Source of the DNA: Candidatus Makaraimicrobium thalassicum
GTDB lineage: Bacteria > Omnitrophota > Gorgyraeia > Tantalellales > Tantalellaceae
DNA length: 64,000 nt
Assembly: GCA_003644505.1 (NCBI GenBank)
Contig: QNCM01000002.1
Coordinates: 4,414-68,413, forward strand
Reading direction: 5' to 3'
Position numbers and translations under genes: made by a program. Below the pieces are notes generated by a model, which worked only from the letters and a program-made list of their open reading frames with translations, was not told where the DNA came from and did no database searches. The stretch's first letter is position 1; each line of letters starts with the position of its first letter. This document shows, piece after piece, positions 27,148 through 53,324 of the stretch.

Positions 27148-27636
27148 ATGAATAAGGCACGGGACAAAGAGTTGAAAAATGGGAAGAGTTACTGTATGCG
27201 TTTACTGTCCCTGCGGCCCAGAAGCGAACATGAGATAGATGACCGGCTGGAAGGCCGGGGATACGATGACCGGGCGCGAAAATGTATACTGGAGTCACTT
27301 AAGATCAGCGGTCTTGTGGATGACCTGAAGTTCGCGAGGGAGTGGATCGATTCCCGGGTTCGGTCAAATCCCCGCGGGATAAAGATCCTCAGGGGCGAGT
27401 TGAGAAAAAAGCAGGTTCCGGAGAGCATCATTGAGGAAGCGGTGAGAGAGCGTGCGGCGGAACTGGATGACCGGGCGGTCGCGGACGCGTTGGTCAGAAA
27501 AAGACTGCGCGCTGCAAAGGACCCTTCCCATATAAATACAGAACTAAAGGGAAAGTTGTTCCGGTTCCTTGTCGGGAAAGGAGTTGATATGGAGGTCGCC
27601 GAGGAGGCGGTAAACAGGGGGTTGGGAGGAACCTAG
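27148..27636 (+). CDS. recX: Recombination regulator RecX
   Basis: Position directly after recA is typical. Helical repeat protein: CMRLLSLRPRSEHEIDDRLEGRGYDD..., ...VADALVRKRL. Start may be the internal Met at 27196. Confidence 0.6.
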   Translation: MNKARDKELKNGKSYCMRLLSLRPRSEHEIDDRLEGRGYDDRARKCILESLKISGLVDDLKFAREWIDSRVRSNPRGIKILRGELRKKQVPESIIEEAVRERAAELDDRAVADALVRKRLRAAKDPSHINTELKGKLFRFLVGKGVDMEVAEEAVNRGLGGT

Positions 27637-27645
27637 AGAATAGCC

Positions 27646-30360
27646 ATGATATCCGGGGAGATACGGAAAAGGTTTCTTGATTTTTTTAAGGATAGAGGAC
27701 ACACTGTCGTGCGAAGTGATCTTCTAGTCCCCAAAAGTGATCCGACATTGCTGTTCACGGGCGCCGGCATGAACCAGTTCAAGGAACAGTTCATGGGAAA
27801 GAACATTACCTTCAAACGGGCGGTCTCGTGTCAGAAGTGTCTGCGGACAGCCGACCTGGAGAATGTGGGCAGGACGCCGCAGCATCACACCTTTTTCGAG
27901 ATGCTGGGAAACTTTTCCTTTGGGGACTATTTCAAGAAAGAGGCCATTCAATGGGCCTGGGAGTTCATGACGAAAGAGATGGGGCTTCCCGAAGAACGGT
28001 TGTGGGTATCCGTTTATGAGGAGGACGAGGAATCATATTCTATCTGGCTTGACAGTATAAAAGTTCCCGCGGACAGGATCGTCAAACTCGGTCCGGATGA
28101 CAATTTCTGGCCGGCGAACGCTCCCGCAAAAGGCCCGAACGGCCCGTGCGGCCCGTGTTCCGAGATCTTTTATGACCGGGGCAGGGATACAGGGTGCGGG
28201 AGCCGCTCATGCGGGCCTTCATGCGACTGCGGCAGGTTCGTGGAAGTGTGGAATCTTGTGTTCACCGAATTCGAAAGGAAGGACGACGGCGCCCTGGAGC
28301 CGTTGCCGAACAGGAACATAGATACCGGCATGGGGCTGGAGCGTATCGCTTCGCTTCTGCAGGGGGTAAAGACGAATTTCCATACCGATATTTTCAGGCC
28401 GATCATCGAGCAGATAAAGAAGCTGCTGGGGGATGAGGCAAAGACAATGCCGGTTGAGGATTTTTACCTAATAGCCGATCATCTCCGGGCGGCGGCATTT
28501 GCCATAGGGGACGGGGTCTCGCCGTCCAATGAGAGACGGGGATATGTCGTGAGAAAACTCATCAGGAGAGCCTATTTGAAAGGCGGGTGCAAGGGGCCGT
28601 TCTTATATAATCTTGTCCCCGGGGTGACAGGCCTTACAAGAGAGGTTTATCCTGAAATAGAGGAGAAAAGGGAGCATATCAGCGCGATCATAGAAGAAGA
28701 AGAGAAGAGGTTCGGCGATACTCTGAGTGCGGCCGCGCCTGTCCTTGACAGCATGATATCCGGCAGTGCCGGAACGCTGGAGGGCGGACAGATATTTAAG
28801 ATGGTAGATACTTACGGGCTTCCTCTTGACGTGATCGCGCAGGAGGCGGGTAAAAAGGGGGTTTCTCTCGATGTTCAGGGGTTTGAGCATCTTATGGCGG
28901 AGAGAAGAGAGCAATCCCGCAAAGGCAGCGATATGTCCGGTGATTTTATTTTCCAGCCGGATCTCTTTGTCCGCGCTCCCAGGCCTTCCTATTCGGAAGA
29001 TCTGCCGTTGGAAGCGGGTCTGGAGTTCATCATTAAAAAGGATGAACTTTCGGATGAGATACGTGAAGGGGAATACGCGGAGATAATAATTTCTCCTCAG
29101 AGCAGCAGATTTTACGCTGAAGCCGGCGGTCAGGTCGGCGATGCGGGGAGTATCGCCAAAGAGGGCGGGTGGATGGATGTCATAAATACCTTTGAGGTCA
29201 GCGGCAGGAAGGTCTTTGGTGTCCGTGTAAAAAAAGGATGTTTTAGAAAAAATGACAGGGTCATCCTTAACCTTGACGAGGACAGGAAGGCCAGGACCGC
29301 GAGGAACCATACTGCCACGCATCTTCTGCAGGCCGCGCTTCGCCGTGTGCTGGGAGAACAGGTAAAACAGTCGGGCTCTTTTGTGGACGACAAAAGGTTA
29401 AGGTTCGATTTTACTCATATGAAAAAACTGTCGTCCAGGGAACTGGCGAAGGTTGAGGAAATGGTCAACGGCTGGATAGAAGAGGGCATTTCCGTAACCA
29501 GCCGCACAAAGACGCTGAAAGAGGCGGAGGAGGAAGGGGCCCTTTCCTTCTTCGGTGAAAAATACGGCGATACCGTTCGTGTCGTGGGCATAGGTGACCG
29601 GTCGAAAGAGCTTTGCGGCGGCACCCATGTGGACAACACGGCCGATATAGAGATAATAAAGATCATCAGTGAAAGCTCTGTGGCCAGCGGGATCAGGCGT
29701 ATAGAGGCACTGACCGGCGAGAATGCCGCGAACTGGATCAGGAAGACCGTGGCGGTTTTTCTGCATGAGTTCAGCGCGGCTTCTCACGGCACCAGTGATC
29801 TTGAGCTGGAAAAAGGCATAAAAAGTTATGCCGATGACATAACCAGCGGCAGGATCAAGATAGACAGGAACGTAATGCATGATTTTGAGGTAAGGATCAA
29901 ACCCGCGTTCCTGAAAGCGCGTGAACTGCTGAAAAGAACCGCGAAGAAACGTCAGAAGGATAAAGAAGCCGGCGTCTTTAACAGGGCGAAAGAGAAGATG
30001 GACGGGATCGCCGCTCATCCGGCCGTGTTCGGCGGGATAAATCTTGTTTCAGGTATCCTGGAAGGCCTGGAAATGCCGCTGCTCCGAAAAGCCGCGGGTT
30101 ATCTTGAAAAGAAAGTGGGGTCAGCCGTAATATTGCTGGGCAGCAGTAAGGGCGATAAGGCGTATCTGGTCTGTGCCGTGACATCCGATCTTACGGACAG
30201 AGGCATAGACGCAGGGGAGATCATAAAGGGTATAGCCGCAAGCATCGGCGGCAACGGCGGCGGAAGAGCGGCGTTCGCCCAGGCCGGAGGCGGGAAGCCG
30301 GATGGCCTGCCCTCCGCTGTGGAAGAGGCCGGACATCTCATCGGGCGGATAAGTGCGTGA
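27646..30360 (+). CDS. alaS: Alanine--tRNA ligase
   Basis: MISGEIRKRFLDFFKDRGHTVVRSDLLVPKSDPTLLFTGAGMNQFK and WNLVFTEFER are class II AlaRS catalytic motifs. Editing-domain HxxxH (HTATHLL) and the C-terminal DHHA1 block (GGGRAAFAQAGG) are present. Confidence 0.95.
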   Translation: MISGEIRKRFLDFFKDRGHTVVRSDLLVPKSDPTLLFTGAGMNQFKEQFMGKNITFKRAVSCQKCLRTADLENVGRTPQHHTFFEMLGNFSFGDYFKKEAIQWAWEFMTKEMGLPEERLWVSVYEEDEESYSIWLDSIKVPADRIVKLGPDDNFWPANAPAKGPNGPCGPCSEIFYDRGRDTGCGSRSCGPSCDCGRFVEVWNLVFTEFERKDDGALEPLPNRNIDTGMGLERIASLLQGVKTNFHTDIFRPIIEQIKKLLGDEAKTMPVEDFYLIADHLRAAAFAIGDGVSPSNERRGYVVRKLIRRAYLKGGCKGPFLYNLVPGVTGLTREVYPEIEEKREHISAIIEEEEKRFGDTLSAAAPVLDSMISGSAGTLEGGQIFKMVDTYGLPLDVIAQEAGKKGVSLDVQGFEHLMAERREQSRKGSDMSGDFIFQPDLFVRAPRPSYSEDLPLEAGLEFIIKKDELSDEIREGEYAEIIISPQSSRFYAEAGGQVGDAGSIAKEGGWMDVINTFEVSGRKVFGVRVKKGCFRKNDRVILNLDEDRKARTARNHTATHLLQAALRRVLGEQVKQSGSFVDDKRLRFDFTHMKKLSSRELAKVEEMVNGWIEEGISVTSRTKTLKEAEEEGALSFFGEKYGDTVRVVGIGDRSKELCGGTHVDNTADIEIIKIISESSVASGIRRIEALTGENAANWIRKTVAVFLHEFSAASHGTSDLELEKGIKSYADDITSGRIKIDRNVMHDFEVRIKPAFLKARELLKRTAKKRQKDKEAGVFNRAKEKMDGIAAHPAVFGGINLVSGILEGLEMPLLRKAAGYLEKKVGSAVILLGSSKGDKAYLVCAVTSDLTDRGIDAGEIIKGIAASIGGNGGGRAAFAQAGGGKPDGLPSAVEEAGHLIGRISA

Positions 30361-30383
30361 TCAACAGAAGATAAGGGGTTGTT

Positions 30384-31607
30384 ATGCGAAGCGTCAAAGT
30401 GGGCAGTAAGGTGTTCGGCAATCTGGTCAACAGGGGTGGCTGTGGAAGGGTACGCCTCCAGAAAAAAGTCAGCAGCATAATCGAGAAGGTGCGCAGTGAA
30501 GGGGACAGCGCCCTGATCAGATATACGACTAAATTCGACAAGATAAACATGAAGAAAAAGGACCTCCGCGTTACCGAGGCGGAGATCAGCGGCGCTTATC
30601 AGGATATAAAACCCGAGATTATCAATACGCTGAAAGAGATCATAGGGAACATAAACAAGTTTTATACGAACCAGGTCCCTAAGTCCTGGTCGATCCGGCA
30701 GGAATCCGGTATCGAACTTGGAGAGAAATTCGCGCCTATCGAGAAGGTCGGAGTATATGTCCCCAGCGGGACGGTCCCTCTGGTATCAAGTGTTTATATG
30801 ACTGTCCTGCCCGCGAGGATCGCCGGCGTGAAAAAGATCGTTATGATGTCCCCTCCGAACAGATATAAGAGCATCGACCCTCATATCCTCGTGGTGGCGA
30901 ACCTTTTCAAGGTCGATGAGATATACAAAGTCGGGGGGGCACAGGCGGTCGCGGCCATGGCGTTCGGCACGAAGAGCATACCGAAAGTGGACAAGATCGT
31001 CGGGCCGGGTAACGAGTATGTTACCGAGGCAAAACGCCAGGTCTTCGGGTATTGCGATATAGACATGCTTGCCGGGCCGAGCGAGGTGCTGATAATAGCC
31101 AACCATTACGCGAACATCGATTATCTCAGGAAGGACCTTATGTCCCAGGCAGAGCACCATAAGGGGTTATCCATTCTTGTTACACCGTCGAAGAAGGTGT
31201 TTAACGCCCTGTATAAGGATCCGGACATAAAGGGATACCTTATCAAGGTCAAGAACCTTGAGGAGGCGGCGGAAGTAAGTAATATGATCGCGCCGGAACA
31301 CCTGCAGCTTATGGTGAAATCCCCGAAAAGGGTATTGAAGAATATCACTAACGCAGGGGCTATTTTCCTCGGGCAGTATACGCCTGTGGCCATAGGGGAC
31401 TACATCGCCGGCCCCAGCCATGTCCTGCCGACCGGCGGGACAGCGCGGTATTCGTCCGGGCTGAACCTGAGAAGTTTCATCAAGAGCTCGCATATTATTT
31501 CTTATTCCCGCAGGGCTCTTTGCGGGTCAGCCGGCTGGGTGCGGGGGCTCACGGAGCTGGAAAATCTGGAAAAACACTGGGAATCGCTCAGTGTGAGGTG
31601 TGAGTGA
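30384..31607 (+). CDS. hisD: Histidinol dehydrogenase
   Basis: [50 protein letters not shown] and QAEHH are all conserved HisD motifs. Confidence 0.9.
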
Positions 31608-32253
31608 GAACGGAGGGCTAATGAACCTATTCAGAAGAACAAAGAATAAAGAGAGGGTTACCGCATACGAAAGAAGGTCCAAAGAGACGCAGATCGAAAT
31701 ACCGCTGCTGAATATTGACGGTTCGGGGAAAAGTGAAATATCCACGTCAATAGGTTTTCTCGACCACATGCTTACGCTACTGGCGTATCACGGTTATTTT
31801 GACCTGAAGATCAAGGCCAGCGGCGACACACAGGTGGACAACCATCATCTCAACGAAGACATAGGGATAGCTCTCGGCGAAGCTTTCAAAAAAGCCCTTG
31901 GCGATTGCAAAGGCATAGCAAGAACAGCTTCAGCGGAAGTGTCCATGGATATGGCAAGCGCGAAGGTCCTGGTGGATCTGTCCAACCGGGCCGCGTTTAA
32001 GTTTAAACTGGCAGGGATTCTAGAGGTGTCAATATCGGACACGGAGGGATATTCGGTCGATCTCGGCAAAGATCTACTGGAGAGTTTCGCGAAAAAGCTT
32101 TGCATGAACCTCCATATAGAAATAGCGGGGGAGGGAGACATGCATCACTATCTTGAGGCGGCCTTCAAGGCCCTGGGCATAGCCCTGGATAAAGCTACCC
32201 GTATCGATCCCCGCAGGGCCGGTGAGGTCCCGTCGAGCAAGGGAATACTTTAG
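31600..32253 (+). CDS. hisB: Imidazoleglycerol-phosphate dehydratase
   Basis: RRSKETQIEIPLLNIDGSGKSEISTSIGFLDHMLTLLAYHGYFDLKIKASGDTQVDNHHLNEDIGIALGEAF is the IGPD signature. It overlaps the hisD stop. The start may be Met at 31621. Confidence 0.9.
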   Translation: MSENGGLMNLFRRTKNKERVTAYERRSKETQIEIPLLNIDGSGKSEISTSIGFLDHMLTLLAYHGYFDLKIKASGDTQVDNHHLNEDIGIALGEAFKKALGDCKGIARTASAEVSMDMASAKVLVDLSNRAAFKFKLAGILEVSISDTEGYSVDLGKDLLESFAKKLCMNLHIEIAGEGDMHHYLEAAFKALGIALDKATRIDPRRAGEVPSSKGIL

Positions 32254-32273
32254 TGAATAGTGAAAGGTGAATA

Positions 32274-32882
32274 GTGATTGGAATTATTGATTACGGTTCC
32301 GGGAATCTGCGGAGCGTTGTTAGCGCTTTCCGCTATCTCAAACAGGATGTTGAGGTGTGTGAAGACCCCCGCGCCCTGGCGCGCGCCCGCAGGATCGTGC
32401 TTCCCGGAGTCGGGTCGTCGGCGGGCGCGATGAAAGGGCTCCGCCAGAGAGGTCTTGTAGAGCCGTTGCTGGAACATATAAGCAGCGGCAGGCCTTTTCT
32501 GGGGATATGCCTCGGGCTTCAGCTTCTCTTTACCCGGAGCTCCGAGGGCGGCGGATGCGATTGCCTGGATGTGGTCCGCGGGGAAGTGAAACTCTTTCCC
32601 GGCGATGCGGGGTTGAAGGTCCCGCAGATAGGATGGAACACGGTCAAGATCAGCGGCAAAAACTGCCCCATTTTTGAAGGCATAGAAGACGAGACTTACT
32701 TTTACTTTGTGCATTCGTATTATTGTGATAACGGTGAACCGGAATGTACCGCCGGCGTGACGGAATACGGCGTTCTATATACTTCCGTGTTGTGGCGGGC
32801 TAATGTTTTCGCCGTGCAGTTTCACCCGGAAAGGTCGCAGTCCAGCGGCCTGAAAATGCTGGAGAATTTTACGCGGTTATGA
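32274..32882 (+). CDS. hisH: Imidazole glycerol phosphate synthase glutaminase subunit
   Basis: MIGIIDYGSGNLRSV, GICLGLQLLF (catalytic Cys) and FAVQFHPERS (His/Glu) are present. Confidence 0.9.
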   Translation: MIGIIDYGSGNLRSVVSAFRYLKQDVEVCEDPRALARARRIVLPGVGSSAGAMKGLRQRGLVEPLLEHISSGRPFLGICLGLQLLFTRSSEGGGCDCLDVVRGEVKLFPGDAGLKVPQIGWNTVKISGKNCPIFEGIEDETYFYFVHSYYCDNGEPECTAGVTEYGVLYTSVLWRANVFAVQFHPERSQSSGLKMLENFTRL

Positions 32883-33619
32883 AAGTTATTCCTGCGATAG
32901 ACTTGATGGATGAAAAGACCGTAAGGCTGGAACAGGGGCAGTATGAGCGCAGGTTGAGTTATGAGATCGGCCCGGTTGATGCCGCGCGCAGGTGGGAGGC
33001 CATGGGGGCCGAGATGATCCATATCGTGGATCTGGACGGAGCAAGGCAGGGCCGGCCCGTCAACCTTCCGGTCGTCGGGAAGATCGCAGGGACGGTCAGT
33101 ATTCCCGTTGAGGCGGGCGGCGGTTTTCGGACGGAAGAGGATATACAAAAGGCGCTTGATAGCGGAGTATGGAGAGTGGTTGTGGGGTCCAGGGCTCTTG
33201 AAGATCTTGCCTTTGCCCGGAAATGCATGGAAAATTTCGGCGAGCGGATGATAATAAGCATAGACGTAAAGGACCATGTCCCCAGTGTCCAGGGGTGGAA
33301 GAAGACCGTTAACGTGGATCTATTCACGGTTCTGGAATGGTTTTCCGGTTTTGGGGCCGGTGAGATAATTTATACGGACATAAAAAAGGACGGGACGCTC
33401 TCCGGGCCTGATATCGACAACCTCGAGCGGATATTAAGCAGAATAAAAATGAGCATGATATCCGCCGGCGGGGTCAGGACACTGGATCATATAAAACAGT
33501 TGAAGACACTGGAATCGCAGGGCCTGACCGGGGTCATAGTCGGCCGGGCCCTTTATGAAGGAACACTGGACCTGAAGGAGGCCATCGATGCTGGCAAAGC
33601 GGATAATCCCGTGTCTTGA
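32879..33619 (+). CDS. hisA: Phosphoribosylformimino-5-aminoimidazole carboxamide ribotide isomerase
   Basis: [29 protein letters not shown] and [16 protein letters not shown] mark a (beta/alpha)8 HisA protein. Confidence 0.9.
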
Positions 33620-34343
33620 CGTAAAAGACGGACGTGTAGTAAAGGGTGTGAATTTCGTGGACCTGCGAGACGCCGGAGATCCGGTAGAAAATGCCGGGAT
33701 CTACAACGATGAAGGCGCTGATGAGCTTGTATTCCTGGATATAACCGCCAGCCACGAAAAACGGAAGACAATGGTAGACGTTGTCCGGCGTGTCGCGGAA
33801 CAGGTGTTTATGCCGTTTACTGTCGGCGGAGGGATCTCCACTAATGAGGATATACGCGGGCTTTTGAACGCAGGATGCGATAAGGTGTCGATAAATACCG
33901 CGGCTGTTGAGAATCCGGATTTCGTCAAAGAAGCCGGTGAAAAGTTCGGTTCGCAGTGTATTGTCGTTGCGATCGACGCGAAGCGGAGGACGAACGGGTC
34001 ATGGGAGGTTTACGTGAAAGGCGGCCGTGTTGCGACCGGGATCGACGCCCTGGAATGGGCCCGTAAGGCGGAAAGACTGGGGGCCGGGGAGATACTGCTG
34101 ACAAGTATGGACCGCGACGGCACGAAAGACGGATATGACGTGGAATTGACGCGGGTAGTAAGCGAGGCGGTGCGTATACCCGTAATAGCCTCCGGGGGAT
34201 GCGGAAATCTGGACCATTTTGTGGAGGTTCTCACGAAAGGCAAGGCGGATGCGGCTTTAGCCGCCTCTGTCTTTCATTTTAAGGAATTTTCGATATCACA
34301 AGTTAAAGAGTATTTGCGGGAACGCGGAGTGCCGGTCAGATAA
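33588..34343 (+). CDS. hisF: Imidazole glycerol phosphate synthase cyclase subunit
   Basis: [55 protein letters not shown] and VIASGGCG are present. Confidence 0.95.
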
Positions 34344-34757
34344 ATGACAAAATTCAAATGGCAAAAGGAAATGTATATGGAATTTATCAAGAAACTTAAT
34401 TTTGACGAAAATGGACTGATCCCGGCGGTCATACAGGACGAAAGATCATCCCGGGTCCTGACGTTGTGCTATATGAATAAAGAAGCGCTTGAAAAGACCT
34501 TGAAGGAGAAGCAGATCTACGTTTTTCGCCGGTCAAAAGGGCGCATAATGCTTAAGGGCGAGACTTCCGGATGCGTGCAGTCCGTGCGGCAGATGTTCGT
34601 TGACTGCGGGGATAATTCCCTTCTTTTCAAGGTGGGACAGACCCGCGCTGCCTGCCATAAAGGGTATTTCAGCTGTTATTTCAGGAGAGTGAACAAAAGA
34701 GGCGAGATAGTAGTTGAGGAAGATCGGATATTTGATCCCGGGGAAGTGTACAAATAG
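34344..34757 (+). CDS. hisI: Phosphoribosyl-AMP cyclohydrolase (monofunctional HisI)
   Basis: LIPAVIQDERSSRVLTLCYMNKEALEKTLKEKQIYVFRRSKGRIMLKGETSGCVQSV...DCGDNSLLFKV...CH.GYFSCYF is present. No HisE (pyrophosphohydrolase) part is attached. The start is probably Met at 34377. Confidence 0.85.
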   Translation: MTKFKWQKEMYMEFIKKLNFDENGLIPAVIQDERSSRVLTLCYMNKEALEKTLKEKQIYVFRRSKGRIMLKGETSGCVQSVRQMFVDCGDNSLLFKVGQTRAACHKGYFSCYFRRVNKRGEIVVEEDRIFDPGEVYK

Positions 34758-34766
34758 GGGCGAGAT

Positions 34767-36242
34767 ATGTATTATCCAGGCAAACAAAAATTTATGGAAC
34801 TGGCTGAAAAGGGCAATGTCATACCCGTTTATCGGGAGATACTGGCGGATTTCAGCACGCCTTTATCCGCTTTTTTAAAGATCGACAAAGGGGAGTTTTC
34901 CTATCTGCTTGAATCCGCCGAAGGCGGGGAACATATGGGCAGGTATTCTTTCCTGGGGAGTGATCCGTCGCTTATCCTCGAAAGTAGAGGTAAAGTCGTC
35001 AGCGTAAAGCGGGGCGACGAGGTCGAAACATATACGGTCAGGGAAGATCCCATCAGCGAAATAAAATCGATCATGGATAAGTTCCGGTTCGTCAAGGTGG
35101 ACGGCCTGCCCAGGTTTTGCGGTGGACTGGTGGGGTACATAGGTTATGACATGGTCCGTTTTATTGAGAACATACCTGATGAGAATGTCGAGGATTTCGA
35201 TATCCCGGATATGCAGCTCGTTCTTACGGATACCATCCTTATCTTCGACCACGTGGACCATAAGATAAAGGTGGTCTCAAACGCCATGATCAGCGGCGAT
35301 GCCGGAGAGGCCTATGACACCGCCTGCGGAAAGATAGACAGGATCATAGGAAGGCTTAAAACCGGCGCGCCAAGGTCAGAAAAGATAGAGGCCAGACCGG
35401 CCCCGGCGAAAGCGGAGTCGAATTTTTCGGAAGAAGAATTTTGCGGGATCGTTGACCGGGCCAAAGAATATATACGCGCCGGCGAGGTGATCCAGATTGT
35501 ACTTTCTCAAAGGCTGAAAAGGCGCACGGGAATGGATGCGTTTTCGATATACAGGGCGCTCAGGTCGATAAATCCTTCACCTTACATGTATTATCTTCAA
35601 TTCGGCGAATACAGGATAGTAGGTTCATCGCCCGAGATCCTGGTGAGATGTGATGAGGAGCTGGTTGAAGTCAGGCCCATAGCCGGGACCCGCAAACGGG
35701 GGGAGGACGAAGAAGAGGACCTGCGGATGGAAAAGGAGCTTCTGGCAGACCCCAAAGAAAGGGCCGAGCATATTATGCTTGTCGATCTGGGGCGCAACGA
35801 TATCGGCCGGGTATGCGATTATGCCACTGTTAAGGCGCGGGAGATAATGCGGATCGAGAAGTATTCGCACGTGATGCATATAGTCAGCGATGTCGTGGGC
35901 AGACTCAGGAAAGATAAGGATATATATGATCTCATGAGAGCTACATTCCCCGCGGGCACTGTGACCGGTGCGCCGAAAGTCAGGGCTATGGAGCTTATCG
36001 ATGAACTGGAGAATATAAGGCGCGGACCATATGCGGGTTGTGTGGGGTATATAAGTTTTTCAGGGAACATAGATATGTGTATCACTATCAGGACGATCGT
36101 GATGAGCGGGGATACCGCCTATATCCAGGCCGGCGCGGGTATTGTCCTGGATTCGGAACCGGCAAGGGAGTACCAGGAGACCATGAACAAGGCCATGGCC
36201 ATGATCAAGGCTATTGAGTTCGCTGAGAGAGGGCTGGAATGA
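34767..36242 (+). CDS. trpE: Anthranilate synthase component I
   Basis: LLESAEGGEHMGRYSFLG, IAGTRKRG, RGPYAGCVGYISFSGNIDMCITIRT and GAGIVLDSEPAREYQET are present. It starts 9 nt after the hisI stop. Confidence 0.9.
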   Translation: MYYPGKQKFMELAEKGNVIPVYREILADFSTPLSAFLKIDKGEFSYLLESAEGGEHMGRYSFLGSDPSLILESRGKVVSVKRGDEVETYTVREDPISEIKSIMDKFRFVKVDGLPRFCGGLVGYIGYDMVRFIENIPDENVEDFDIPDMQLVLTDTILIFDHVDHKIKVVSNAMISGDAGEAYDTACGKIDRIIGRLKTGAPRSEKIEARPAPAKAESNFSEEEFCGIVDRAKEYIRAGEVIQIVLSQRLKRRTGMDAFSIYRALRSINPSPYMYYLQFGEYRIVGSSPEILVRCDEELVEVRPIAGTRKRGEDEEEDLRMEKELLADPKERAEHIMLVDLGRNDIGRVCDYATVKAREIMRIEKYSHVMHIVSDVVGRLRKDKDIYDLMRATFPAGTVTGAPKVRAMELIDELENIRRGPYAGCVGYISFSGNIDMCITIRTIVMSGDTAYIQAGAGIVLDSEPAREYQETMNKAMAMIKAIEFAERGLE

Positions 36243-36802
36243 CTTTTGTTATAGACAATTATGATTCGTTCACATATAATCTCGTCCAATATTTAGGGGA
36301 GCTCGGGGAAGAGGTGGTCGTCTGCCGTAATGATAAGATTACGCCGGAGGGAATAGAATCTCTTTCTCCCGAAAGGATAATTATCTCGCCGGGACCGGGC
36401 CGGCCGGCCGATGCGGGAATATCGAAAAGTGTGATCCGGAAGTTCCGCGACAGGGTCCCAATACTTGGCGTATGCCTGGGGCACCAGTGTATAGCTGAGG
36501 TTTACAACGCCAGAGTCGTGGGGAGCAGCCGCATAATGCACGGAAAGGTGAGCCCTATCCATCATAACGGAGAAGGCATCTTCAAGGGTATACCTTCTCC
36601 GTTTACAGCCACGCGGTACCATTCCCTGATCGTCGAGCCGGGCAGTCTTAAACATCCCTTGAAGCTGACCGCCTGGACGGAAGAGAAAGAGGTTATGGGG
36701 ATCTGTCACGTGGATAAGCCGATATGGGGTGTTCAGTTCCATCCGGAATCCATACTGACAACGGAGGGAATGAATATTCTCAGGAACTTTATAAACAGTT
36801 AA
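36239..36802 (+). CDS. trpG: Anthranilate synthase component II (glutamine amidotransferase)
   Basis: MTFVIDNYDSFTYNLVQY, ILGVCLGHQCI and GVQFHPES are present. It overlaps trpE in an ATGA arrangement. Confidence 0.9.
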   Translation: MTFVIDNYDSFTYNLVQYLGELGEEVVVCRNDKITPEGIESLSPERIIISPGPGRPADAGISKSVIRKFRDRVPILGVCLGHQCIAEVYNARVVGSSRIMHGKVSPIHHNGEGIFKGIPSPFTATRYHSLIVEPGSLKHPLKLTAWTEEKEVMGICHVDKPIWGVQFHPESILTTEGMNILRNFINS

Positions 36803-36806
36803 ATTT

Positions 36807-36846
36807 CCGATCCCGCACCGGGAAGCGGTTCCTTTTGCGGGATCGA
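36807..36846. repeat. Hairpin / palindromic element between trpG and trpD
   Basis: CGATCCCGCA (36808-36817) and TGCGGGATCG (36836-36845) form a 10-bp stem with an 18-nt loop. No U-tract follows. The core is the same as the arms of the thpR terminator. Confidence 0.6.
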
Positions 36847-36852
36847 AAGTAA

Positions 36853-37896
36853 ATGAAAAGCAGAAAGAGTAACATGGACATTAAAAAGGCGATCGAGAAA
36901 GTTGTCTGTTTCAGGGGCCTGACGGAAAAAGAGACACATTCGGTCTTTAGCGGGATTATGAGCGGCAGGGCCACCGCGTCCCAGATCAGCGCGTTCATAA
37001 CAGCACTCCGCATGAAGGGCGAAACAGTAGATGAGATAACCGGTGCGGCAAGGGTGATGAGGGAAAAAGCCGTCAGGATAAAAACCAGCGCCAGGACGGT
37101 CCTTGATACATGCGGGACCGGCGGGACAGGGACGGGCGCTTTTAACATTTCCACTGCCGTTGCCTTTGTCCTTGCGGGATGCGGAGTGAAAGTCGCCAAA
37201 CATGGGAACAGGACGGCATCCAGCAGGTGCGGCAGCGCGGATGTTCTGGAAGAGCTGGGAGTGAAACTTGATGTGCCTGTCCAGGTGACGGAGAGATGCA
37301 TCAGGACCATCAATATAGGTTTCCTGTTCGCTCCGGTCTTCCACAGCGCCATGCGCTATGCCGTTACCCCGCGGAAGGAAATAGGACTGCGGACGATATT
37401 CAACATTCTGGGGCCTCTGTCCAACCCGGCTTCGGCCACATGTCAGGTCCTGGGGGTATATGAGGGAGGCCTGACCGTGACGATGGCGAAGGTCCTCAGG
37501 AAGCTGGGGACAAAACGGGCCTATGTCGTGCATGGCAGGGATACACTTGATGAGGTTACCATAACCGATAGAACGATGATCGCTGAATTAAGGAACGGAA
37601 GGATAAAGTCTTATTCCGTGAGCCCGGGGACCTTCGGGTTTAAAAAAGCGGCCCTTAAGGATATCAAAGGCGGATCAGCAAAAAAGAACGCGGAAATAAT
37701 CCGGAACGTTTTGTCGGGGCAAAAGGGGCCCAGGCGGGATATAGTCCTGATGAATTCCAGTGTGGCGCTCATGGCCGCGGGAAAGGTAAAGGATCTTAAA
37801 AAGGGAGTCCGGTTCGCCGCGGCGGCTGTTGATTCCGGGGAAGCGCTGGAGAGACTGGAGGAGTTGATCAGGGTCACGAACGAAGGAGTTTCATGA
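36853..37896 (+). CDS. trpD: Anthranilate phosphoribosyltransferase
   Basis: LDTCGTGGTGTGAFNISTAVAFVLAGCGVKVAKHGNR, NILGPLSNP and VVHGRDTLDE are present. Confidence 0.9.
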   Translation: MKSRKSNMDIKKAIEKVVCFRGLTEKETHSVFSGIMSGRATASQISAFITALRMKGETVDEITGAARVMREKAVRIKTSARTVLDTCGTGGTGTGAFNISTAVAFVLAGCGVKVAKHGNRTASSRCGSADVLEELGVKLDVPVQVTERCIRTINIGFLFAPVFHSAMRYAVTPRKEIGLRTIFNILGPLSNPASATCQVLGVYEGGLTVTMAKVLRKLGTKRAYVVHGRDTLDEVTITDRTMIAELRNGRIKSYSVSPGTFGFKKAALKDIKGGSAKKNAEIIRNVLSGQKGPRRDIVLMNSSVALMAAGKVKDLKKGVRFAAAAVDSGEALERLEELIRVTNEGVS

Positions 37897-38669
37897 TATT
37901 ACCCAAGATCATAGAGGAAAAAAAACGCGAAGTCGACAGGGCACAAAAAAGTTTTTTTTTGAACGATCTTAAAAAAGAAGCGGAATCCATGTACATCCGG
38001 AGCATGTTCAAGAAGAACATATCCCGGAAGGGTCATATTAACCTCATAGCGGAGATAAAAAAAAGTTCTCCTTTGCGGGGTATGCTGCGCGCTGATTTTG
38101 AGCCCGTTAAGATCGCGCTTACCTATCAGGTAGCCGGCGCCAGCGCCATCAGTATCCTGACCGATGAGCGTTTTTTTGACGGAAAAATGGAATACCTTAA
38201 AATAGTGAAGGAGAGGGTAACTATACCGATTCTCCGGAAAGATTTTATCATAGACGAGTATCAGATATATGAATCCGCGGTAAGAGGCGCGGACGCAATC
38301 CTTCTGATTTCGCATATTCTTACGCAGGAAGAACTGAACCGGTATCTGGGCATCGCCAAAGGACTGGGCATGGATGTGCTTGTCGAAGTGCACAATGAAG
38401 AGGAAGTCGAAAAAGCCCTGAAAAGCCACGCATCGATGATAGGGATAAACAACCGGGATCTTATGGATTTCGGGGTCGATATCGCCGTCACGCAGAGGCT
38501 GATCCGCCTTATTCCCGAGAACAAGGTGATTGTTTCCGAAAGCGGCATAGAGAGTTATGAACAGGTGATGTTCCTGAAAAGCCTCGGGGTTAACGCCGTT
38601 TTGATCGGGGAAGCTTTTATGCGTGCCGGGAATATAGGGGAAAAGGTCAGAGAGTTGATGAAGGAATAG
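37893..38669 (+). CDS. trpC: Indole-3-glycerol phosphate synthase
   Basis: LIAEIKKSSP, ILRKDFIIDEYQIYE, LLIS, IGINNRDL and VSESGI are present. Confidence 0.9.
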   Translation: MILPKIIEEKKREVDRAQKSFFLNDLKKEAESMYIRSMFKKNISRKGHINLIAEIKKSSPLRGMLRADFEPVKIALTYQVAGASAISILTDERFFDGKMEYLKIVKERVTIPILRKDFIIDEYQIYESAVRGADAILLISHILTQEELNRYLGIAKGLGMDVLVEVHNEEEVEKALKSHASMIGINNRDLMDFGVDIAVTQRLIRLIPENKVIVSESGIESYEQVMFLKSLGVNAVLIGEAFMRAGNIGEKVRELMKE

Positions 38670-38675
38670 GAATAA

Positions 38676-39353
38676 ATGGTAAAAGTCAAGATATGCGGTT
38701 TGACGAACGTGAAAGACGCTTCAAGGGCTTGTGATTACGGGGCTGATCTTCTGGGGTTCATCTTTGTCAAGGGTACCCCGCGTTACGTGGAAAATATCAG
38801 AGATATAATATCAGATCTGCCGCCGGAGGTGAAGAATAAAACGGGGAGGGTGGGACTGTTTAAGGACGAGGAACTGGAAGAAGTCGCCAGGACCGTTGCC
38901 GGCTGTGATCTGGATTACGTCCAGCTGCATGGGGAAGAGCGGCCTGATTATTGCCGCGCGCTTAAGAATATCCTGCGGGACAGGCACAATTTGTCCGCGA
39001 AGATCATCAAGACCTTCAAGATCAGAGACAGGATCCTGCCCCAGGGGCAGTACAGCCCCTGCGACTATGAGCAGGCGGACTATTTTGTTTTTGACACGTT
39101 TCATCCTGAGATTTCCGGCGGGACAGGCAGAAGGTTTGACTGGCAGGTCCTGATAAAAGAGAGGGAGCGGATAAAAAAGCCATTTTTTATCGCCGGAGGG
39201 CTTACTCCGGAGAACGTCGCGTCCGCGGTTAAGACCGTTCGTCCTTACGGAGTTGATGTCTCAAGCGGAGTGGAGGATCTTCCCGGGGAAAAGGACGAAA
39301 ACCTATTAAAGGAGTTTATCGAAAATGCGAAGAAAGCCCAGACTGCCCGATAA
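38676..39353 (+). CDS. trpF: N-(5'-phosphoribosyl)anthranilate isomerase
   Basis: [37 protein letters not shown] and [11 protein letters not shown] are present. Confidence 0.85.
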
Positions 39354-40515
39354 CAGAGGATATTTCGGCATATTCGGGGGAGAATACGTTCCCGAGACCC
39401 TTATGCCTGCTTTAAAAGAACTTACCACAGCGTATAAAAAGATAGGCCGCTCAGCTCCCTTCAGAAAAAAGCTGAGATACTTTCTGAAAGAATATGCCGG
39501 AAGGCCCACTCCGTTGTATTTCGCGGGGAAACTTACGGAGAAGCTCGGCGGTGCAAAGATATACCTGAAACGGGAAGATCTTCTGCATACCGGCGCGCAC
39601 AAGATCAACAATACCATAGGACAGGCGCTCCTGGCGGTGGCGATGGGCAAGAAGCGCCTGGTCGCGGAGACCGGCGCCGGACAACACGGGGTGGCGACCG
39701 CTACTGTGGCGGCCCTGTTTGATCTTAAATGCGACGTATATATGGGAACCGAGGATATCGAGAGGCAGAACCTGAATGTATTCCGCATGAAGCTTATGGG
39801 CGCGAGGGTCATTCCCGTGCAGAGCGGGTCCTGCACGCTTAAGGATGCCACCAACGAGGCAATAAGGGACTGGGTTACCAATGTGCGGGATACGTATTAC
39901 GTCCTGGGGTCCGTTGTCGGCCCCCATCCTTATCCCATGATGGTCCGGGAGTTCCAGACTGTCATAGGCAAAGAAGTGCGCAGGGATATAATCCGCAGAG
40001 AGGGAAAGCTGCCCGGGTATCTCGTGGCGTGTGTCGGAGGCGGAAGTAATTCCATCGGGCTTTTTCATCCGTTTTTCAGGGACAGGAAAGTGGCGTTTAT
40101 CGGCGTTGAGGCGGCGGGATTCGGGATAAAGACCGGCCGTCACGCTGCCGCGCTTATGAAAGGCAGAGTCGGCGTATTGCACGGAAGCAAGAGTTTTCTG
40201 CTGGAGGATGATGACGGCCAGGTGAAACTCGCTCATTCCATCTCAGCAGGTCTGGATTACCCGGGGGTCGGCCCCGAACATTCATATTATAAACAGACCG
40301 GAAGGGCCGAGTATGTATCGGTGAATGACAGAGAAGCCCTTGAAGGAGTGAAGCTTCTTTCGCGGACAGAAGGTATCATTCCCGCGCTGGAGACCGCTCA
40401 CGCAGTATATTACCTTAAAAAACTGGTGAAGAGAACGGGAAAGAAAGACATAATCGTCCTGTGCTTATCCGGCCGCGGGGATAAAGATATCGATATAATC
40501 AAGAAACATATGTAG
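39325..40515 (+). CDS. trpB: Tryptophan synthase beta chain
   Basis: [24 protein letters not shown] (PLP Lys), [22 protein letters not shown] and [11 protein letters not shown] are present. Confidence 0.95.
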
Positions 40516-40560
40516 GGAATAGTCTTCACTAACCACTAAAATGCAGCAAAAAGGGAGAAG

Positions 40561-41364
40561 ATGAACAGGATCGATGAAACGTTCAAAAAATTAAGAGCGG
40601 ATAATAAAAAAGCTTTTATTCCGTACGTGGCTGCCGGAGACCCCGATATAAAGACAACCAAAAAAATAGTCTCTGTTCTGGCGGCAGCTGGCGCGGATAT
40701 CGTGGAACTGGGCATACCTTTTTCGGATCCCCTGGCGGACGGGCCGACAATACAGAAAGCCATTCAACGTTCGCTTTCTGCCGGCTGTTCGGTAAGAAAA
40801 GTCCTGGATATGGTCAAAGAACTGCGAGGCAAGGTGGGGATACCTCTGGTTTTCATGACCTATTACAATATTATCTTCAACTATGGCGCCGGCCGTTTCA
40901 TAAAGGACGCTAAGGCCTGCGGCGCGGACGGCGTTATAGTGCCGGATCTTCCGATGGAGGAATCCGGCGGACTGGCGGATATAGCGGATAAAGAGGATTT
41001 TTACGTTATTATGCTTGCCGCGCCCACGACACCTCCGGCGAGATTCAGGAAGATCGCGGACCGTTCCAGGGGATTTATTTATTATGTGTCACTGACAGGG
41101 GTAACCGGGGCAAGGAAGGCGCTTTCCGCGAAGCTGAACAGCGAGGTCAAAGAGCTGAAGAAGATGACGGCAAAACCCGTATGTGTGGGCTTCGGCATAT
41201 CCAATCCCGCCCAGGCCAGCGGTATAGCGAGCGCGTCTGACGGCGTGATCGTCGGAAGCGCCATAATCAAGGTAATAGAGAAGAACCTGGATGACAGGAG
41301 CAGGATGATCGCGAAGGTCGAAGCGTTCGCCGGCTCTATCGCTAGGGCGATTCACGGAGTTTAA
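40561..41364 (+). CDS. trpA: Tryptophan synthase alpha chain
   Basis: FIPYVAAGDPD, ADIVELGIPFSDPLADGPTIQ, DGVIVPDLP and YYVSLTGVTG are present. Confidence 0.9.
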   Translation: MNRIDETFKKLRADNKKAFIPYVAAGDPDIKTTKKIVSVLAAAGADIVELGIPFSDPLADGPTIQKAIQRSLSAGCSVRKVLDMVKELRGKVGIPLVFMTYYNIIFNYGAGRFIKDAKACGADGVIVPDLPMEESGGLADIADKEDFYVIMLAAPTTPPARFRKIADRSRGFIYYVSLTGVTGARKALSAKLNSEVKELKKMTAKPVCVGFGISNPAQASGIASASDGVIVGSAIIKVIEKNLDDRSRMIAKVEAFAGSIARAIHGV

Positions 41365-41382
41365 GAGATATGGAGTCGCGGT

Positions 41383-41805
41383 ATGCGGGTGATGGCGCTG
41401 GATATCGGCACGAAGAACATAGGGGTAGCAGTAAGCGATGAGACCGGCATACTCGCGCAGGCAAAGGGACCCGTCCGGAGGACAAGCACTGCGCGGGCTG
41501 TAACACGGATCAGGGAACTAGTCGAGCAATTTAACGTCGGAGAGATCGTTGTGGGATTACCGCTTAATATGAACGGTACGATGGGCAGGCGCGCTGAAGA
41601 CAGCGTGAAATTCGCCGGGATACTGAAACAGCGGACTTCTCTGCCGGTGAAATTATGGGATGAACGCTTAAGCACCAGAGAAGCGGAAGCTGTCATGATA
41701 GAGGCCTCTGTTACGCGGAAAAAGAGAAAAAAAACAGTGGATGGTCTCGCCGCGCAGATCATATTACAGGGGTACCTCGATAGTTTAGAGACGGAAAGAG
41801 GGTAA
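41383..41805 (+). CDS. ruvX: Putative pre-16S rRNA nuclease / Holliday-junction resolvase-like YqgF
   Basis: MRVMALDIGTKNIGVAVSD, IVVGLPLNMNGT and LWDERLSTREAE are present. Confidence 0.85.
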   Translation: MRVMALDIGTKNIGVAVSDETGILAQAKGPVRRTSTARAVTRIRELVEQFNVGEIVVGLPLNMNGTMGRRAEDSVKFAGILKQRTSLPVKLWDERLSTREAEAVMIEASVTRKKRKKTVDGLAAQIILQGYLDSLETERG

Positions 41806-41809
41806 AAAT

Positions 41810-43081
41810 ATGTACAAAAAGCTGCAGGGAAAGAACGGTCTTACTGTGATAGTATCGCCGATGCCGCAGATGGCCTCGGTCTCTCTTGGAATATGGATCG
41901 GCGTAGGAGGGCGTTACGAATCTGAAAAACAGAGCGGTATAAGCCATCTCGTGGAGCACATGTTGTTCAAGGGGACGCATAGCCGGACAGCTAAAGATCT
42001 CAAAGAATCCATCGAGGGAATAGGGGGGGCGTTCAACGGTTTTACCTCCGACGAGGTAACGTGTTACATGGTGAAAGTCCCGGCAAAATATCTGGAACTG
42101 GGGATAGATATCCTGGCGGACATGGTATTGAACGCCAGGTTTGACGAGCAGGATCTCACGAGGGAGAGATTTGTCGTTTGCGAAGAGATAAAGATGTACC
42201 GCGATCAGCCGGCCGACCATGTCATGGATCTGCTGGGAGAAATAATGTGGCCGCAAAACGCCCTCGGGCGTCCGCTGACGGGCAGTATCAGTAATGTAAA
42301 AGGTTTCAGCGCGGATGAGCTGATAAGGTTCAAAGAGAATAACTACCACCCGGCTAATATCGCTGTTGTAGCGGCTGGAAGGGCCGATCCTGAAAAAGTT
42401 TTAAGTTATGCGGCACAGAGGTTCGCGGCGAAAAAAAAGAGGAAGACCCCGTCGTTCGAGACGCCAAAGGTTACCCAGAAAAGCTCCTCCATGAAGGTGT
42501 GCCGCGGGGATACAAAGCAGACGCATATCGCGATGGGGTTTCATGCCACGGACCGCAACATCCGTGAAAGGTTCGCGCTTAAGCTGATGAACGTGATCTT
42601 CGGGGGGAACATGTCATCCCGCCTTTTCGAAGAACTGCGCGAAAAATACGGCCTTTGCTATGATATATCCTCATCATACAAAAGGCACAGTGATGTGGGG
42701 GAGGTCCATATACACGCCGGAGTGGATAATAAAAAGGCTCCCCGGTCTGTCATTGCCATCCTGGATGAAGTGAAGAAATTAAGGGATCTGGGAATAACCG
42801 AAGATGAACTTGCCCGGGCGAAAGAATATGCCAAGGGACAGTTCCTTATCGCGATGGAAGGCACAGCGACCAGAATGATGTGGCTCGGGGACAAATTCAT
42901 GGTGCAGCGGCATATACCCGGGGTAAAAGATGTCTTGAGAGAGATAGACGGCGTAACGTCAGCTGAGATACACAAAGTCTGCGAAAGGATTTTCAGGGCT
43001 TCATCGGTTAACCTGGCTATGGTAGGCAGGTTGAGGGATAAAGATAAGAGTAAGATAAAAGAAGAGCTGAACAGATTATGA
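41810..43081 (+). CDS. M16 family zinc peptidase (pitrilysin-like)
   Basis: The inverted zinc motif HLVEHMLFKGT (HxxEH) is present, followed by the downstream E of the EN..E motif. There are two M16 halves. Confidence 0.8.
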   Translation: MYKKLQGKNGLTVIVSPMPQMASVSLGIWIGVGGRYESEKQSGISHLVEHMLFKGTHSRTAKDLKESIEGIGGAFNGFTSDEVTCYMVKVPAKYLELGIDILADMVLNARFDEQDLTRERFVVCEEIKMYRDQPADHVMDLLGEIMWPQNALGRPLTGSISNVKGFSADELIRFKENNYHPANIAVVAAGRADPEKVLSYAAQRFAAKKKRKTPSFETPKVTQKSSSMKVCRGDTKQTHIAMGFHATDRNIRERFALKLMNVIFGGNMSSRLFEELREKYGLCYDISSSYKRHSDVGEVHIHAGVDNKKAPRSVIAILDEVKKLRDLGITEDELARAKEYAKGQFLIAMEGTATRMMWLGDKFMVQRHIPGVKDVLREIDGVTSAEIHKVCERIFRASSVNLAMVGRLRDKDKSKIKEELNRL

Positions 43082-44151
43082 AAGGGACTTTCCGCCTGGT
43101 CAGGGTCATGGGGATCAACATAGACATACACAGCACATTCTTGCTGCTTCTGGCTTTCTTCTTTCTGGTTATGGGGGTCAGGGGGCTTATACTTATCCTG
43201 GGTGTATTTTTCTTTGTGACGATCCACGAACTTTGTCATAGCCTGGTTGCGGCACGTTTCGGAATAAAAGTAAAGCACATAACACTTCTGCCCATAGGCG
43301 GCGTGGCATCAATGCCGGAGGCGCCGCGGGTGCCGTATCAGGAACTCCTTATATCTCTTGCGGGCCCGCTGTCGAATATGCTCATCCTGGTCATTTTTTA
43401 TTATCCTCTTCTCGCTCTTCTGGGAAAGGAAACACTGATCTATCCGCTGCGGGTCATGACGGGTCAGGTTAAGTATACCGGACAGCTCAATATCCTGGCG
43501 CATATCTACTGGATCAACCTGGTCCTGGCTGTTTTCAATATGCTGCCGTCGTTCCCCATGGACGGAGGACGGGTCCTGCGCGCGATACTGTCCTACCGCA
43601 TCGGCTATAGGGAAGCTACGGCTGTGGCTGTCAGGCTCGGGCATATATTCGCGCTGCTGTTCGCCTATCTCGGCATAGTGCACGGTCATATCTTTCTTTT
43701 GATCGTTGCGGTATTTGTTTATATGGCGGCTTCCAGCGAAGGTTTTCAGGTGGAGGTGACCGAGACTATCAAGAATTATTCCGTGCGGGATATACTGGCC
43801 AGGGATTTTATACATGTAAGGCCGGATACTCCCCTCTCAAAGGTCCTGGAGCTCATATTCCGCACACATCAGGAAGATTATCCGGTGATCGAGGACGGCC
43901 ACTTGAGGGGATTTATCACCCGGAGGGAGATTATCCGGGGGATACATGAGAAGGGTAAGGAGGCAAAGGTGGAGAAGGTGATGCGCGGGGATATACCCGC
44001 GGTCGAGATGTCTGCCGGATTGCACCTTGTCCAGAAACTCATGCAGAAATATAATACAAACGCCATGCCCGTGAAGAAAAGAGGCAATATAGTCGGTGTG
44101 GTCACCAAGGATGATATAAACAGGGTGTATCTTATGATGAGTGAACATTAA
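43078..44151 (+). CDS. M50 (site-2 protease-like) membrane metalloprotease with a C-terminal CBS pair
   Basis: Several TM helices are present. HELCHSLVA is the HExxH motif and MLPSFPMDGGRVLRA is LDG-like. The C-terminal CBS domains read VRDILARDFIHVRPD...MPVKKRGNIVGVVTKDDI. Confidence 0.75.
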   Translation: MKGTFRLVRVMGINIDIHSTFLLLLAFFFLVMGVRGLILILGVFFFVTIHELCHSLVAARFGIKVKHITLLPIGGVASMPEAPRVPYQELLISLAGPLSNMLILVIFYYPLLALLGKETLIYPLRVMTGQVKYTGQLNILAHIYWINLVLAVFNMLPSFPMDGGRVLRAILSYRIGYREATAVAVRLGHIFALLFAYLGIVHGHIFLLIVAVFVYMAASSEGFQVEVTETIKNYSVRDILARDFIHVRPDTPLSKVLELIFRTHQEDYPVIEDGHLRGFITRREIIRGIHEKGKEAKVEKVMRGDIPAVEMSAGLHLVQKLMQKYNTNAMPVKKRGNIVGVVTKDDINRVYLMMSEH

Positions 44152-44183
44152 CGCGCCTAAATAGGGATATAGAAAGGACAGGA

Positions 44184-44840: not shown

Positions 44841-44892
44841 CTCGTATACGAGCCACGAGTCACGAGCTACGAGAAATGATTGGAGGAAATAA

Positions 44893-53309: not shown

Positions 53310-53324
53310 AACAAAGAGGATAAC

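Follow-up and report, generated by a model that had tools for sequence, protein, structure and literature searches.

Histidine and tryptophan biosynthesis genes joined without a recognizable leader in a conserved gene array of Candidatus Omnitrophota

Mixed-pathway clusters that include genes for histidine (his) or tryptophan (trp) biosynthesis are known from several bacteria. In Mycobacterium tuberculosis, the order hisD-C-B-H-A-(impA)-F-I is followed a few genes later by trpE-C-B-A, and Bacillus subtilis possesses an aromatic supraoperon (aroFBH-trpEDCFBA-hisC-tyrA-aroE) with read-through from upstream genes. The supraoperon concept has been discussed (PMC1173090), and for Actinomycetota the location of priA among his and trp genes is described (PMC13055916). 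Here, we analyzed a 64-kb stretch of DNA (the window) from a Candidatus Omnitrophota metagenome contig, in which hisD-B-H-A-F-I is followed by trpE-G-D-C-F-B-A, all genes being co-directional on the + strand.

As in Actinomycetota, his and trp genes share one co-directional neighborhood, and the best solved-structure matches of the window's TrpE are mycobacterial. However, Actinomycetota rely on one isomerase, PriA, and have no trpF, whereas the window holds separate hisA and trpF genes; moreover, their clusters are interrupted by other genes, while here a complete trp set abuts hisI at a distance of 9 nt and hisC is absent from the 64 kb. Like the B. subtilis supraoperon, the array has a complete, co-directional trp set alongside genes from other pathways, of which one is his-related. 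The partners differ: B. subtilis has aroF/B/H and hisC-tyrA-aroE, with hisC as the only his partner, while in the window hisI (closing an upstream hisDBHAFI set) and alaS precede the trp genes, and ruvX and an M16 peptidase gene follow them. Furthermore, the B. subtilis trp genes keep their own promoter and a leader for TRAP (the trp RNA-binding attenuation protein) with (G/U)AG repeats, for which the window has neither spacer nor repeats. The order trpE-G-D-C-F-B-A and overlapping stop/start codons, which suggest coupling, are shared with the E. coli operon with its trpL attenuator and with Firmicute operons with a Trp T-box, but the window lacks a leader open reading frame (ORF), a terminator/antiterminator and a T-box. 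Judged by its sequence, the array is a new gene-order arrangement among known mixed-pathway clusters and points to no new mechanism. Our favored reading, which we consider probable, is a conserved Omnitrophota gene-order block with long polycistronic read-through, no leader, control of tryptophan at the enzyme level, and a hairpin between trpG and trpD that is a stray repeat.

All 13 ORFs of 30384–41364 fit the expected his and trp families in a profile search of the window proteins, and the public gene calls for the source contig (ENA ERZ27227322, k141_1246129, 114,909 bp) give identical genes. The array and its two flanking genes are as follows (best profile and E value or score in brackets).

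27646–30360, + strand: alaS, upstream flank, ending 23 nt before hisD (TIGR00344, 6.4e-247)
30384–31607, + strand: hisD, histidinol dehydrogenase (TIGR00069, 3.7e-140, exceeding the cut-off)
31621–32253, + strand: hisB, imidazoleglycerol-phosphate (IGP) dehydratase (NF002116, 3.9e-64)
32274–32882, + strand: hisH, IGP synthase, glutaminase subunit (TIGR01855, 2.2e-60)
32879–33619, + strand: hisA, phosphoribosylformimino-aminoimidazole-carboxamide ribotide (ProFAR) isomerase (TIGR00007, 242.7 bits, cut-off 228.95)
33588–34343, + strand: hisF, cyclase subunit of IGP synthase, with a strong GGAGG upstream (TIGR00735, 1e-120)
34344–34757, + strand: hisI, phosphoribosyl-AMP (PR-AMP) cyclohydrolase, without a HisE domain (NF000768, 2.9e-36; PF01502)
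34767–36242, + strand: trpE, anthranilate synthase I, with LLES at residue 47 and NPSPYM at residue 269 (TIGR00564, 4e-175)
36239–36802, + strand: trpG, anthranilate synthase II (TIGR00566, 2.4e-73)
36853–37896, + strand: trpD, anthranilate phosphoribosyltransferase (TIGR01245, 6.5e-124)
37893–38669, + strand: trpC, indole-3-glycerol-phosphate synthase (NF001377, 8.9e-99)
38676–39353, + strand: trpF, phosphoribosylanthranilate (PRA) isomerase (NF002298, 2.8e-62; PF00697)
39325–40515, + strand: trpB, tryptophan synthase beta (TIGR00263, 1.1e-185)
40561–41364, + strand: trpA, tryptophan synthase alpha (TIGR00262, 2.8e-91)
41383–41805, + strand: ruvX (yqgF), downstream flank, 18 nt past trpA (TIGR00250, 2e-41)

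Within the 64 kb, the trp set is complete and the his set is partial, as profile scans of the window gave none of hisG, hisZ, hisC, hisE or a histidinol-phosphatase gene. Against the model for bifunctional hisA-trpF (TIGR01919), hisA reached only 177.3 bits, under the cut-off of 306.45, and by profile HisA is predicted to be monofunctional. The hisB gene likely starts at ATG 31621 rather than at GTG 31600 of the longest ORF; GGAGGG lies 3 nt ahead of this ATG, and the public gene call has 210 aa. For hisI, an alternative start at 34377 may apply, which would open a gap of 33 nt after hisF. Neither later start changes the overall picture.

The first-pass annotation had stated that hisI ends 9 nt before trpE and that all junctions are at most 50 nt long or overlapping, and these lengths were confirmed. 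In gene order, they are an 8-nt overlap for hisD/hisB (a gap of +13 if hisB starts at ATG 31621), 20 nt for hisB/hisH, a 4-nt ATGA overlap for hisH/hisA, a 32-nt overlap for hisA/hisF, 0 nt for hisF/hisI, 9 nt for hisI/trpE, a 4-nt overlap for trpE/trpG, 50 nt for trpG/trpD, a 4-nt overlap for trpD/trpC, 6 nt for trpC/trpF, a 29-nt overlap for trpF/trpB and 45 nt for trpB/trpA. Overlaps of the ATGA type occur three times in the array. The spacer at the point of fusion is given below.

34758–34766, + strand: hisI/trpE junction, 9 nt, GGGCGAGAT, unstructured and too short for a leader

A scan with TrpE, taking one genome per species, gave 78 loci, to which the L numbers refer. The eight closest are Candidatus Omnitrophota metagenome-assembled genomes (MAGs) from different studies, with TrpE 70–80% identical. 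Independent Omnitrophota MAGs share the order recA-(recX)-alaS-hisDBHAFI-trpEGDCFBA-ruvX-M16-M50/CBS-rpe-pgm: it is identical and complete from recA to pgm in L003 and L006, deviates in L007 and L068 only in that recX was not detected (L068 is additionally without M50/CBS), and holds in L001, L002 and L005 up to their contig ends. The flanking alaS is in the equivalent position in L001, L003, L006, L007 and L068, and ruvX in L002, L003, L004, L006, L007 and L068. Since the same order recurs in independent assemblies, the his-trp fusion is neither an artefact nor chance, and the hisI/trpE junction described at first pass is conserved and a real feature of the lineage. The sequence hisF-hisI-trpE was also found in L008 (Auribacterota MAG), L009 (UBP4) and L012 (Kiritimatiellia MAG), and in none of the 66 other loci (Chloroflexota, Desulfobacterota, Nitrospirota, Firmicutes, Planctomycetota and others). 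In a rough neighbor-joining tree, the his-linked TrpEs group in one neighborhood.

The hisI/trpE junction measures −1 to 16 nt in L002, L003, L006, L068, L009 and L012 (−1 to 4 nt in the four Omnitrophota among these, L002, L003, L006 and L068), and the spacer is long in L001 (154 nt) and L005 (189 nt). The 32-nt overlap of hisA and hisF (33588–33619 in the window) is kept in 8 of 8 Omnitrophota loci, and that of trpF and trpB (39325–39353) is variable, with about 17–29 nt in most loci. In L009, a divergent tRNA and a nuclease gene are followed by a 157-nt spacer and then by hisF-hisI-trpEGDCFBA. This spacer contains TTGACA...TGgTAAGTT 28 nt ahead of the hisF ATG, hisI and trpE are 8 nt apart, and Rfam gave no match. 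A putative operon start is visible before hisF in L009, and there is no room for a leader at trpE there either.

A recognizable leader is absent from the array. The claim that there is no space for one, and that T-box, riboswitch and TRAP-type control are missing, held up in Rfam searches with a working control and in ORF and triplet searches. Rfam was scanned at gathering thresholds, with a permissive rescan of 27000–45000 at E values up to 10. At gathering thresholds, the window yielded tRNA-Pro only and the eight Omnitrophota relatives nothing, and the permissive rescan returned three noise matches. As a positive control, the T-box (RF00230) directly before trpE of Clostridium acetireducens was recovered at L059 9661–9931 with 109.3 bits, which demonstrates that the scan works. 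No T-box was found upstream of trpE or hisD, either at the gathering score, at E values up to 10 or in the eight relatives, and the long hisI/trpE spacers of L001 and L005 gave no Rfam match. An RNase P-like partial match at 30361–30447 (16 bits, far from the required gathering score of 100; E = 0.18) was rejected as noise.

Searches for small ORFs with tandem Trp or His codons came back empty, and none with tandem Trp codons lies between 34450 and 34950; the only ORFs in that interval with at least two Trp are the TTG-start forms (55 and 49 aa) of the out-of-frame 34714–34878, with four scattered Trp. For TRAP, 9–11 (G/U)AG triplets spaced 2–3 nt apart were sought near the trpE start. Runs of six or more triplets do not occur on the + strand of the whole window, runs of four or more are missing near 34300–35000 and 36700–36900, and mtrB (TRAP) had no match among the ORFs scanned in the 64 kb. 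The fold across hisI/trpE (34720–34800) is no better than shuffles (z = +0.64), the same applies to alaS/hisD, and no terminator/antiterminator hairpins with a U-run were found upstream of trpE. Lastly, codon identity at identical amino acids was followed across 6–9 orthologues as a measure of synonymous conservation (background 0.45 ± 0.07). Over their last 50 codons, alaS, hisI and trpG stay at this background; within the his-trp block, identity peaks at the dual-coding overlaps hisA/hisF (0.86) and trpF/trpB (0.74). A peak in alaS near 27769 (0.83) ranks above trpF/trpB, which is third, while hisA/hisF is the strongest of the array.

With regards to the claim of an 11-kb super-operon, the physical fusion and the conserved order stand, but the unit has no visible edges. 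The outer junctions are as tight as the inner ones (alaS/hisD 23 nt, trpA/ruvX 18 nt), both flanking genes are functionally unrelated, and neither junction holds a promoter-like or terminator-like site. All genes of the window lie on the + strand, 96.4% of it is coding, and 34 of the 39 junctions measure at most 52 nt, with a median of 6 nt. From recX (27148) to plsY (51245), 25 genes of unrelated functions follow each other with no gap above 52 nt; downstream of trpA, these comprise ruvX, M16, M50/CBS, rpe, pgm, lepA, lepB, pgsA, der and plsY at similar spacing. Gaps inside the his-trp block have a median of −2 nt and other window gaps one of 14 nt, a difference that is not significant (Mann-Whitney p = 0.12). 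Since gaps are tight throughout the window, spacing is a style of this genome and not the mark of a dedicated 11-kb unit, the boundaries of which are arbitrary. As a caution, spacing alone is no basis for the word operon where nearly all junctions are tight.

Intergenic terminator-like sites were not found inside the his-trp block. The terminator-like matches that the + strand does have there fall within coding sequence, form weak stems of mostly 5–6 pairs and are no more numerous than in shuffles. The closest intergenic candidates upstream of the array, both terminator-like and promoter-like, lie before recA (25722–25929). The promoter-like one is as follows.

25901–25929, + strand: TTGCAA-17-TATAAT, 10/12 consensus, 43 nt ahead of recA; a consensus match only

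In the recA/recX spacer (27028–27147, 120 nt), a modest hairpin is followed by eight T (z = −1.9, not significant against shuffles). It may act as a leaky terminator, so that recX and the genes after it would be expressed less than recA.

In the favored reading, the array would be transcribed in long polycistronic RNAs that start at or before recA/recX, or from weak promoters inside coding sequence. Neighboring cistrons would be translationally coupled via the ATGA, the 32-nt hisA/hisF and the 29-nt trpF/trpB overlaps, and control by an RNA leader specific for histidine or tryptophan would be missing. Tryptophan flux would be set mainly by feedback inhibition of TrpE by tryptophan, and histidine flux at HisG, which would be encoded elsewhere. 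The LLES and NPSPYM motifs of TrpE align identically to the mycobacterial TrpE structures 7bvd and 5cwa. We take these motifs to be the site of inhibition by tryptophan, as established for enteric and mycobacterial TrpE. Of the 2,171 aa that make up the seven Trp enzymes, only 4 are Trp, and none of these is in TrpE, TrpD, TrpC or TrpA; for the six His enzymes, the count is 12 Trp out of 1,460 aa. The His content of both sets is equal. On this reading, the locus is a clean, conserved case of two amino-acid pathways joined gene to gene without an RNA leader in an uncultured lineage.

Several points weigh against this reading. We infer co-transcription, promoter positions and the lack of regulation from sequence features. 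The sigma-70 consensus scan may miss promoters of Omnitrophota, which are uncharacterized, and a protein repressor with operators within coding sequence may act on the genes. A segment of hisI (34665–34700) is mildly raised in synonymous identity (0.63, z = 2.4, under the 99th percentile of 0.66), and with only 6–9 genomes the synonymous test is weak for an element of 6–30 nt. In L004, an AT-rich insert (1–1793) immediately upstream of trpE carries an ORF of 154 aa without a family match and the gene of a 383-aa protein in which an Mrr_cat restriction-endonuclease domain was recognized (6.8e-30); neither hisF nor hisI was found in the 1.8 kb left before the contig end. This island means that the his-trp junction is breakable and that the trp half can evidently be expressed without adjoining his genes. 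Furthermore, the full palindrome from the trpG/trpD spacer, discussed below, has only two copies in 64 kb, a small sample for a dispersed repeat family.

The main rival draws on some of the same observations. Here, his, trp and the flanks would be separate units, each read from a promoter within the 3′ end of the gene before it, possibly under a protein regulator, and the tight spacing would reflect compaction only. We regard this as possible but unlikely. A single regulatory operon of 25 genes is implausible given that alaS and ruvX are functionally unrelated, the trp block of L004 lies downstream of a foreign island, the hisI segment shows its mild conservation, and promoter-like hexamers in coding sequence exceed expectation (28 against 18.7 ± 4.4). 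However, none of the promoter-like sites ahead of trpE or hisD combines a suitable position with conservation, the synonymous sites at the 3′ ends of alaS and hisI are at background, and the short hisI/trpE gap of the window and of L002, L003, L006 and L068 resembles coupling rather than a start site. In L009, the sole visible promoter region lies ahead of hisF and not ahead of trpE. The promoter-like site at 34747–34775 would begin transcription within trpE. The strongest match, 36252–36280 (TAGACA-17-TATAAT, 11/12), was rejected because of its position within trpG, where the codons of the invariant IDNYDSFTYNL spell it out; its −35 part is not retained in relatives.

A further and somewhat more doubtful suggestion is that the hisF-hisI-trpE-trpG junction is itself selected, so that two pathways consuming phosphoribosyl pyrophosphate (PRPP) and glutamine are handled as one unit without a leader, by a shared signal and enzyme feedback. 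The shared signal might, equally tentatively, be PRPP or energy state, or the stringent response. If true, this would be a distinct control of two amino acids that are among the most expensive, in small cells that depend in part on hosts. In 176 complete Omnitrophota genomes, the Trp, His and Arg pathways are reported as complete and serine biosynthesis as incomplete (preprint 10.64898/2026.06.07.730766), and in Corynebacterium glutamicum no amino acids cost more ATP than Trp, Arg and His, with PRPP feeding His and Trp (PMC3896937). Pathway costs and retention give some context for a selective link that is itself speculative. A selected junction would point to joint control of His and Trp; otherwise, the arrangement would be ordinary compaction and conserved synteny.

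For the hairpin between trpG and trpD, the first-pass annotation had proposed that trp regulation is either absent or exerted through this element. The structure itself is real, with an outer stem of 10 bp and an inner one of 5 bp (36807–36846) that fold with −26.6 kcal/mol (z = −4.4); none of 200 shuffles folds as well. However, it is not a conserved trp element, and it has a sister copy near recA.

36805–36848, no strand assigned: palindromic repeat in the trpG/trpD spacer, CCGATCCCGCA ... TGCGGGATCG, inverted repeat I4
25722–25759, + strand: sister palindrome between thpR and recA, CCGATCCCGCA...TGCGGGATCGG, inverted repeat I2

As a trp-specific control element, the hairpin would sense tryptophan, tRNA-Trp or a protein and gate trpDCFBA. 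It is the sole strong structure within the block, its 3′ arm lies 8–17 nt before the trpD ATG (the arm ends 8 nt before it), and the Shine-Dalgarno-like pairing of trpD is the weakest among the 13 his/trp genes (duplex −4.1 kcal/mol). Moreover, some palindrome is present at trpG/trpD in three genomes, namely the window, L002 and L005. However, the elements of L002 and L005 are unrelated in sequence to that of the window, and are themselves repeats that recur at other places of those loci. In L003, L004, L006, L007 and L068, the hairpin is missing and the trpG/trpD junction measures −4 to 14 nt; not one of the 78 related loci has the window's palindrome. The hairpin has no Rfam match and no T-run, so that it is not an intrinsic terminator. 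Control at this point would also leave trpE and trpG, the committed step, uncontrolled. We therefore consider a regulatory hairpin very improbable; the comparison already largely argues it away and removes a tempting candidate regulator. Between the two options of the first-pass annotation, the lack of amino-acid-specific leader control is favored over the hairpin.

The sister copy, remote from the trp genes, forms a 17-bp stem (−34.6 kcal/mol, z = −6.4) followed by a T-run, which is terminator-like after thpR. The window has 6 copies of the exact 10-mer CGATCCCGCA, where 0.28 would be expected, including two lone half-sites in coding sequence, one in the giant ORF (263–272, + strand) and one in trpE (35442–35451, − strand). 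With a hairpin that is not conserved and a sister copy away from trp, the element is best read as a dispersed palindromic repeat that sits in a permissive junction. Its effect would at most be non-specific, and a barrier that affects mRNA stability or an occlusion of the weak trpD ribosome site is conceivable. Given the proximity of the 3′ arm to the ATG and the weak pairing, trpD translation may depend on a ribosome finishing trpG. An attempt to trace the repeat family by a metagenome scan for CGATCCCGCA-N(8–30)-TGCGGGATCG was abandoned as too unspecific (at least 118 contigs). Among the matches listed, no metagenome contig was related to the window (blastn, E < 1e-10); a bare 10-bp GC-rich palindrome is too generic, and the family is untraceable in this way.

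Dispersed repeats likewise make up the spacers of the relatives, where they recur at several junctions of one genome. Many consist of tandem heptamers (e.g., TAGGTTA, TTCGTAG and CGAACCA) in inverted arrays around a core, the insertion site differs per genome, and the gene order is undisturbed. The repeats are located as follows.

L001 5097–5197, 9318–9372, 9844–9988 and 12039–12079: spacer repeats
L005 2258–2297 and 4811–4948: spacer repeats
L068 6495–6644, 9422–9571, 15743–15892 and 19349–19498: spacer repeats, one 150-nt element in four copies
Window 44841–44892: rpe/pgm spacer with (C/T)ACGAG heptamers

The long hisI/trpE spacers of L001 and L005 are heptamer-array repeats with further copies between other genes of the respective locus; L001 has a single repeat family in both its hisI/trpE and its alaS/hisD spacer. 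L006 is almost without spacers. Like the repetitive extragenic palindromic (REP) sequences and bacterial interspersed mosaic elements (BIME) of enterobacteria and the short tandemly repeated repetitive (STRR) sequences of cyanobacteria, these are stable palindromes or heptamers at several intergenic sites, not conserved at orthologous sites and tolerated within co-directional gene arrays. The heptamer repeats of Omnitrophota resemble the cyanobacterial STRR heptamers, and REP hairpins can stabilize upstream mRNA. However, the window repeats have no sequence similarity to REP/BIME or STRR, and only two full copies are present in the window.

In L002, a 51-nt palindromic element occupies the trpG/trpD spacer (4641–4691), and its reverse complement (88% complementary) lies in the trpA/ruvX spacer (9226–9276), so that the pair exactly brackets trpDCFBA. 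A motif of the type GTCATCC(T/C)GAGCGAAGCGAAGGATCTC was seen in the hisF/hisI spacer of L001, rpe/pgm of L004, hisI/trpE of L005 and M16/rpe of L068, and may be a small repeat of wider distribution.

That the fusion stems from faulty assembly or binning, or that the block is an island gained recently by horizontal transfer between alaS and ruvX, has a negligible probability. In favor of these options, the source is a metagenome contig, and the block looks inserted when compared with the conserved recA-recX-alaS neighborhood of E. coli and the proximity of alaS and ruvX in Bacillus. However, an artefact is already refuted by the identical order in assemblies that independent studies produced, neither GC content nor GC skew changes between block and flanks, any insertion would be older than the divergence of Omnitrophota lineages with TrpE only 70% identical, and no relatives with alaS directly beside ruvX were seen.

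Downstream of the his-trp array, a second compact array (52125–63151, gaps of 1–16 nt) combines amino-acid biosynthesis with unrelated genes. It comprises gpsA, tRNA-Pro (with a distance of 5 nt to the next gene, hom), hom, thrC, an apgM-like gene (‘proposed homoserine kinase’), the aspartate kinase gene ask, the citramalate synthase gene cimA, valS and a pseudouridine synthase gene. The 109-nt overlap of cimA and valS probably reflects a later valS start. At the other end of the window, the ORF 10–20388 encodes 6,792 aa and is followed 18 nt later by an ORF of 1,328 aa (20407–24393) with a histidine-kinase ATPase region. This pair fits the giant proteins that have been described in Omnitrophota (preprint 10.64898/2026.06.07.730766).

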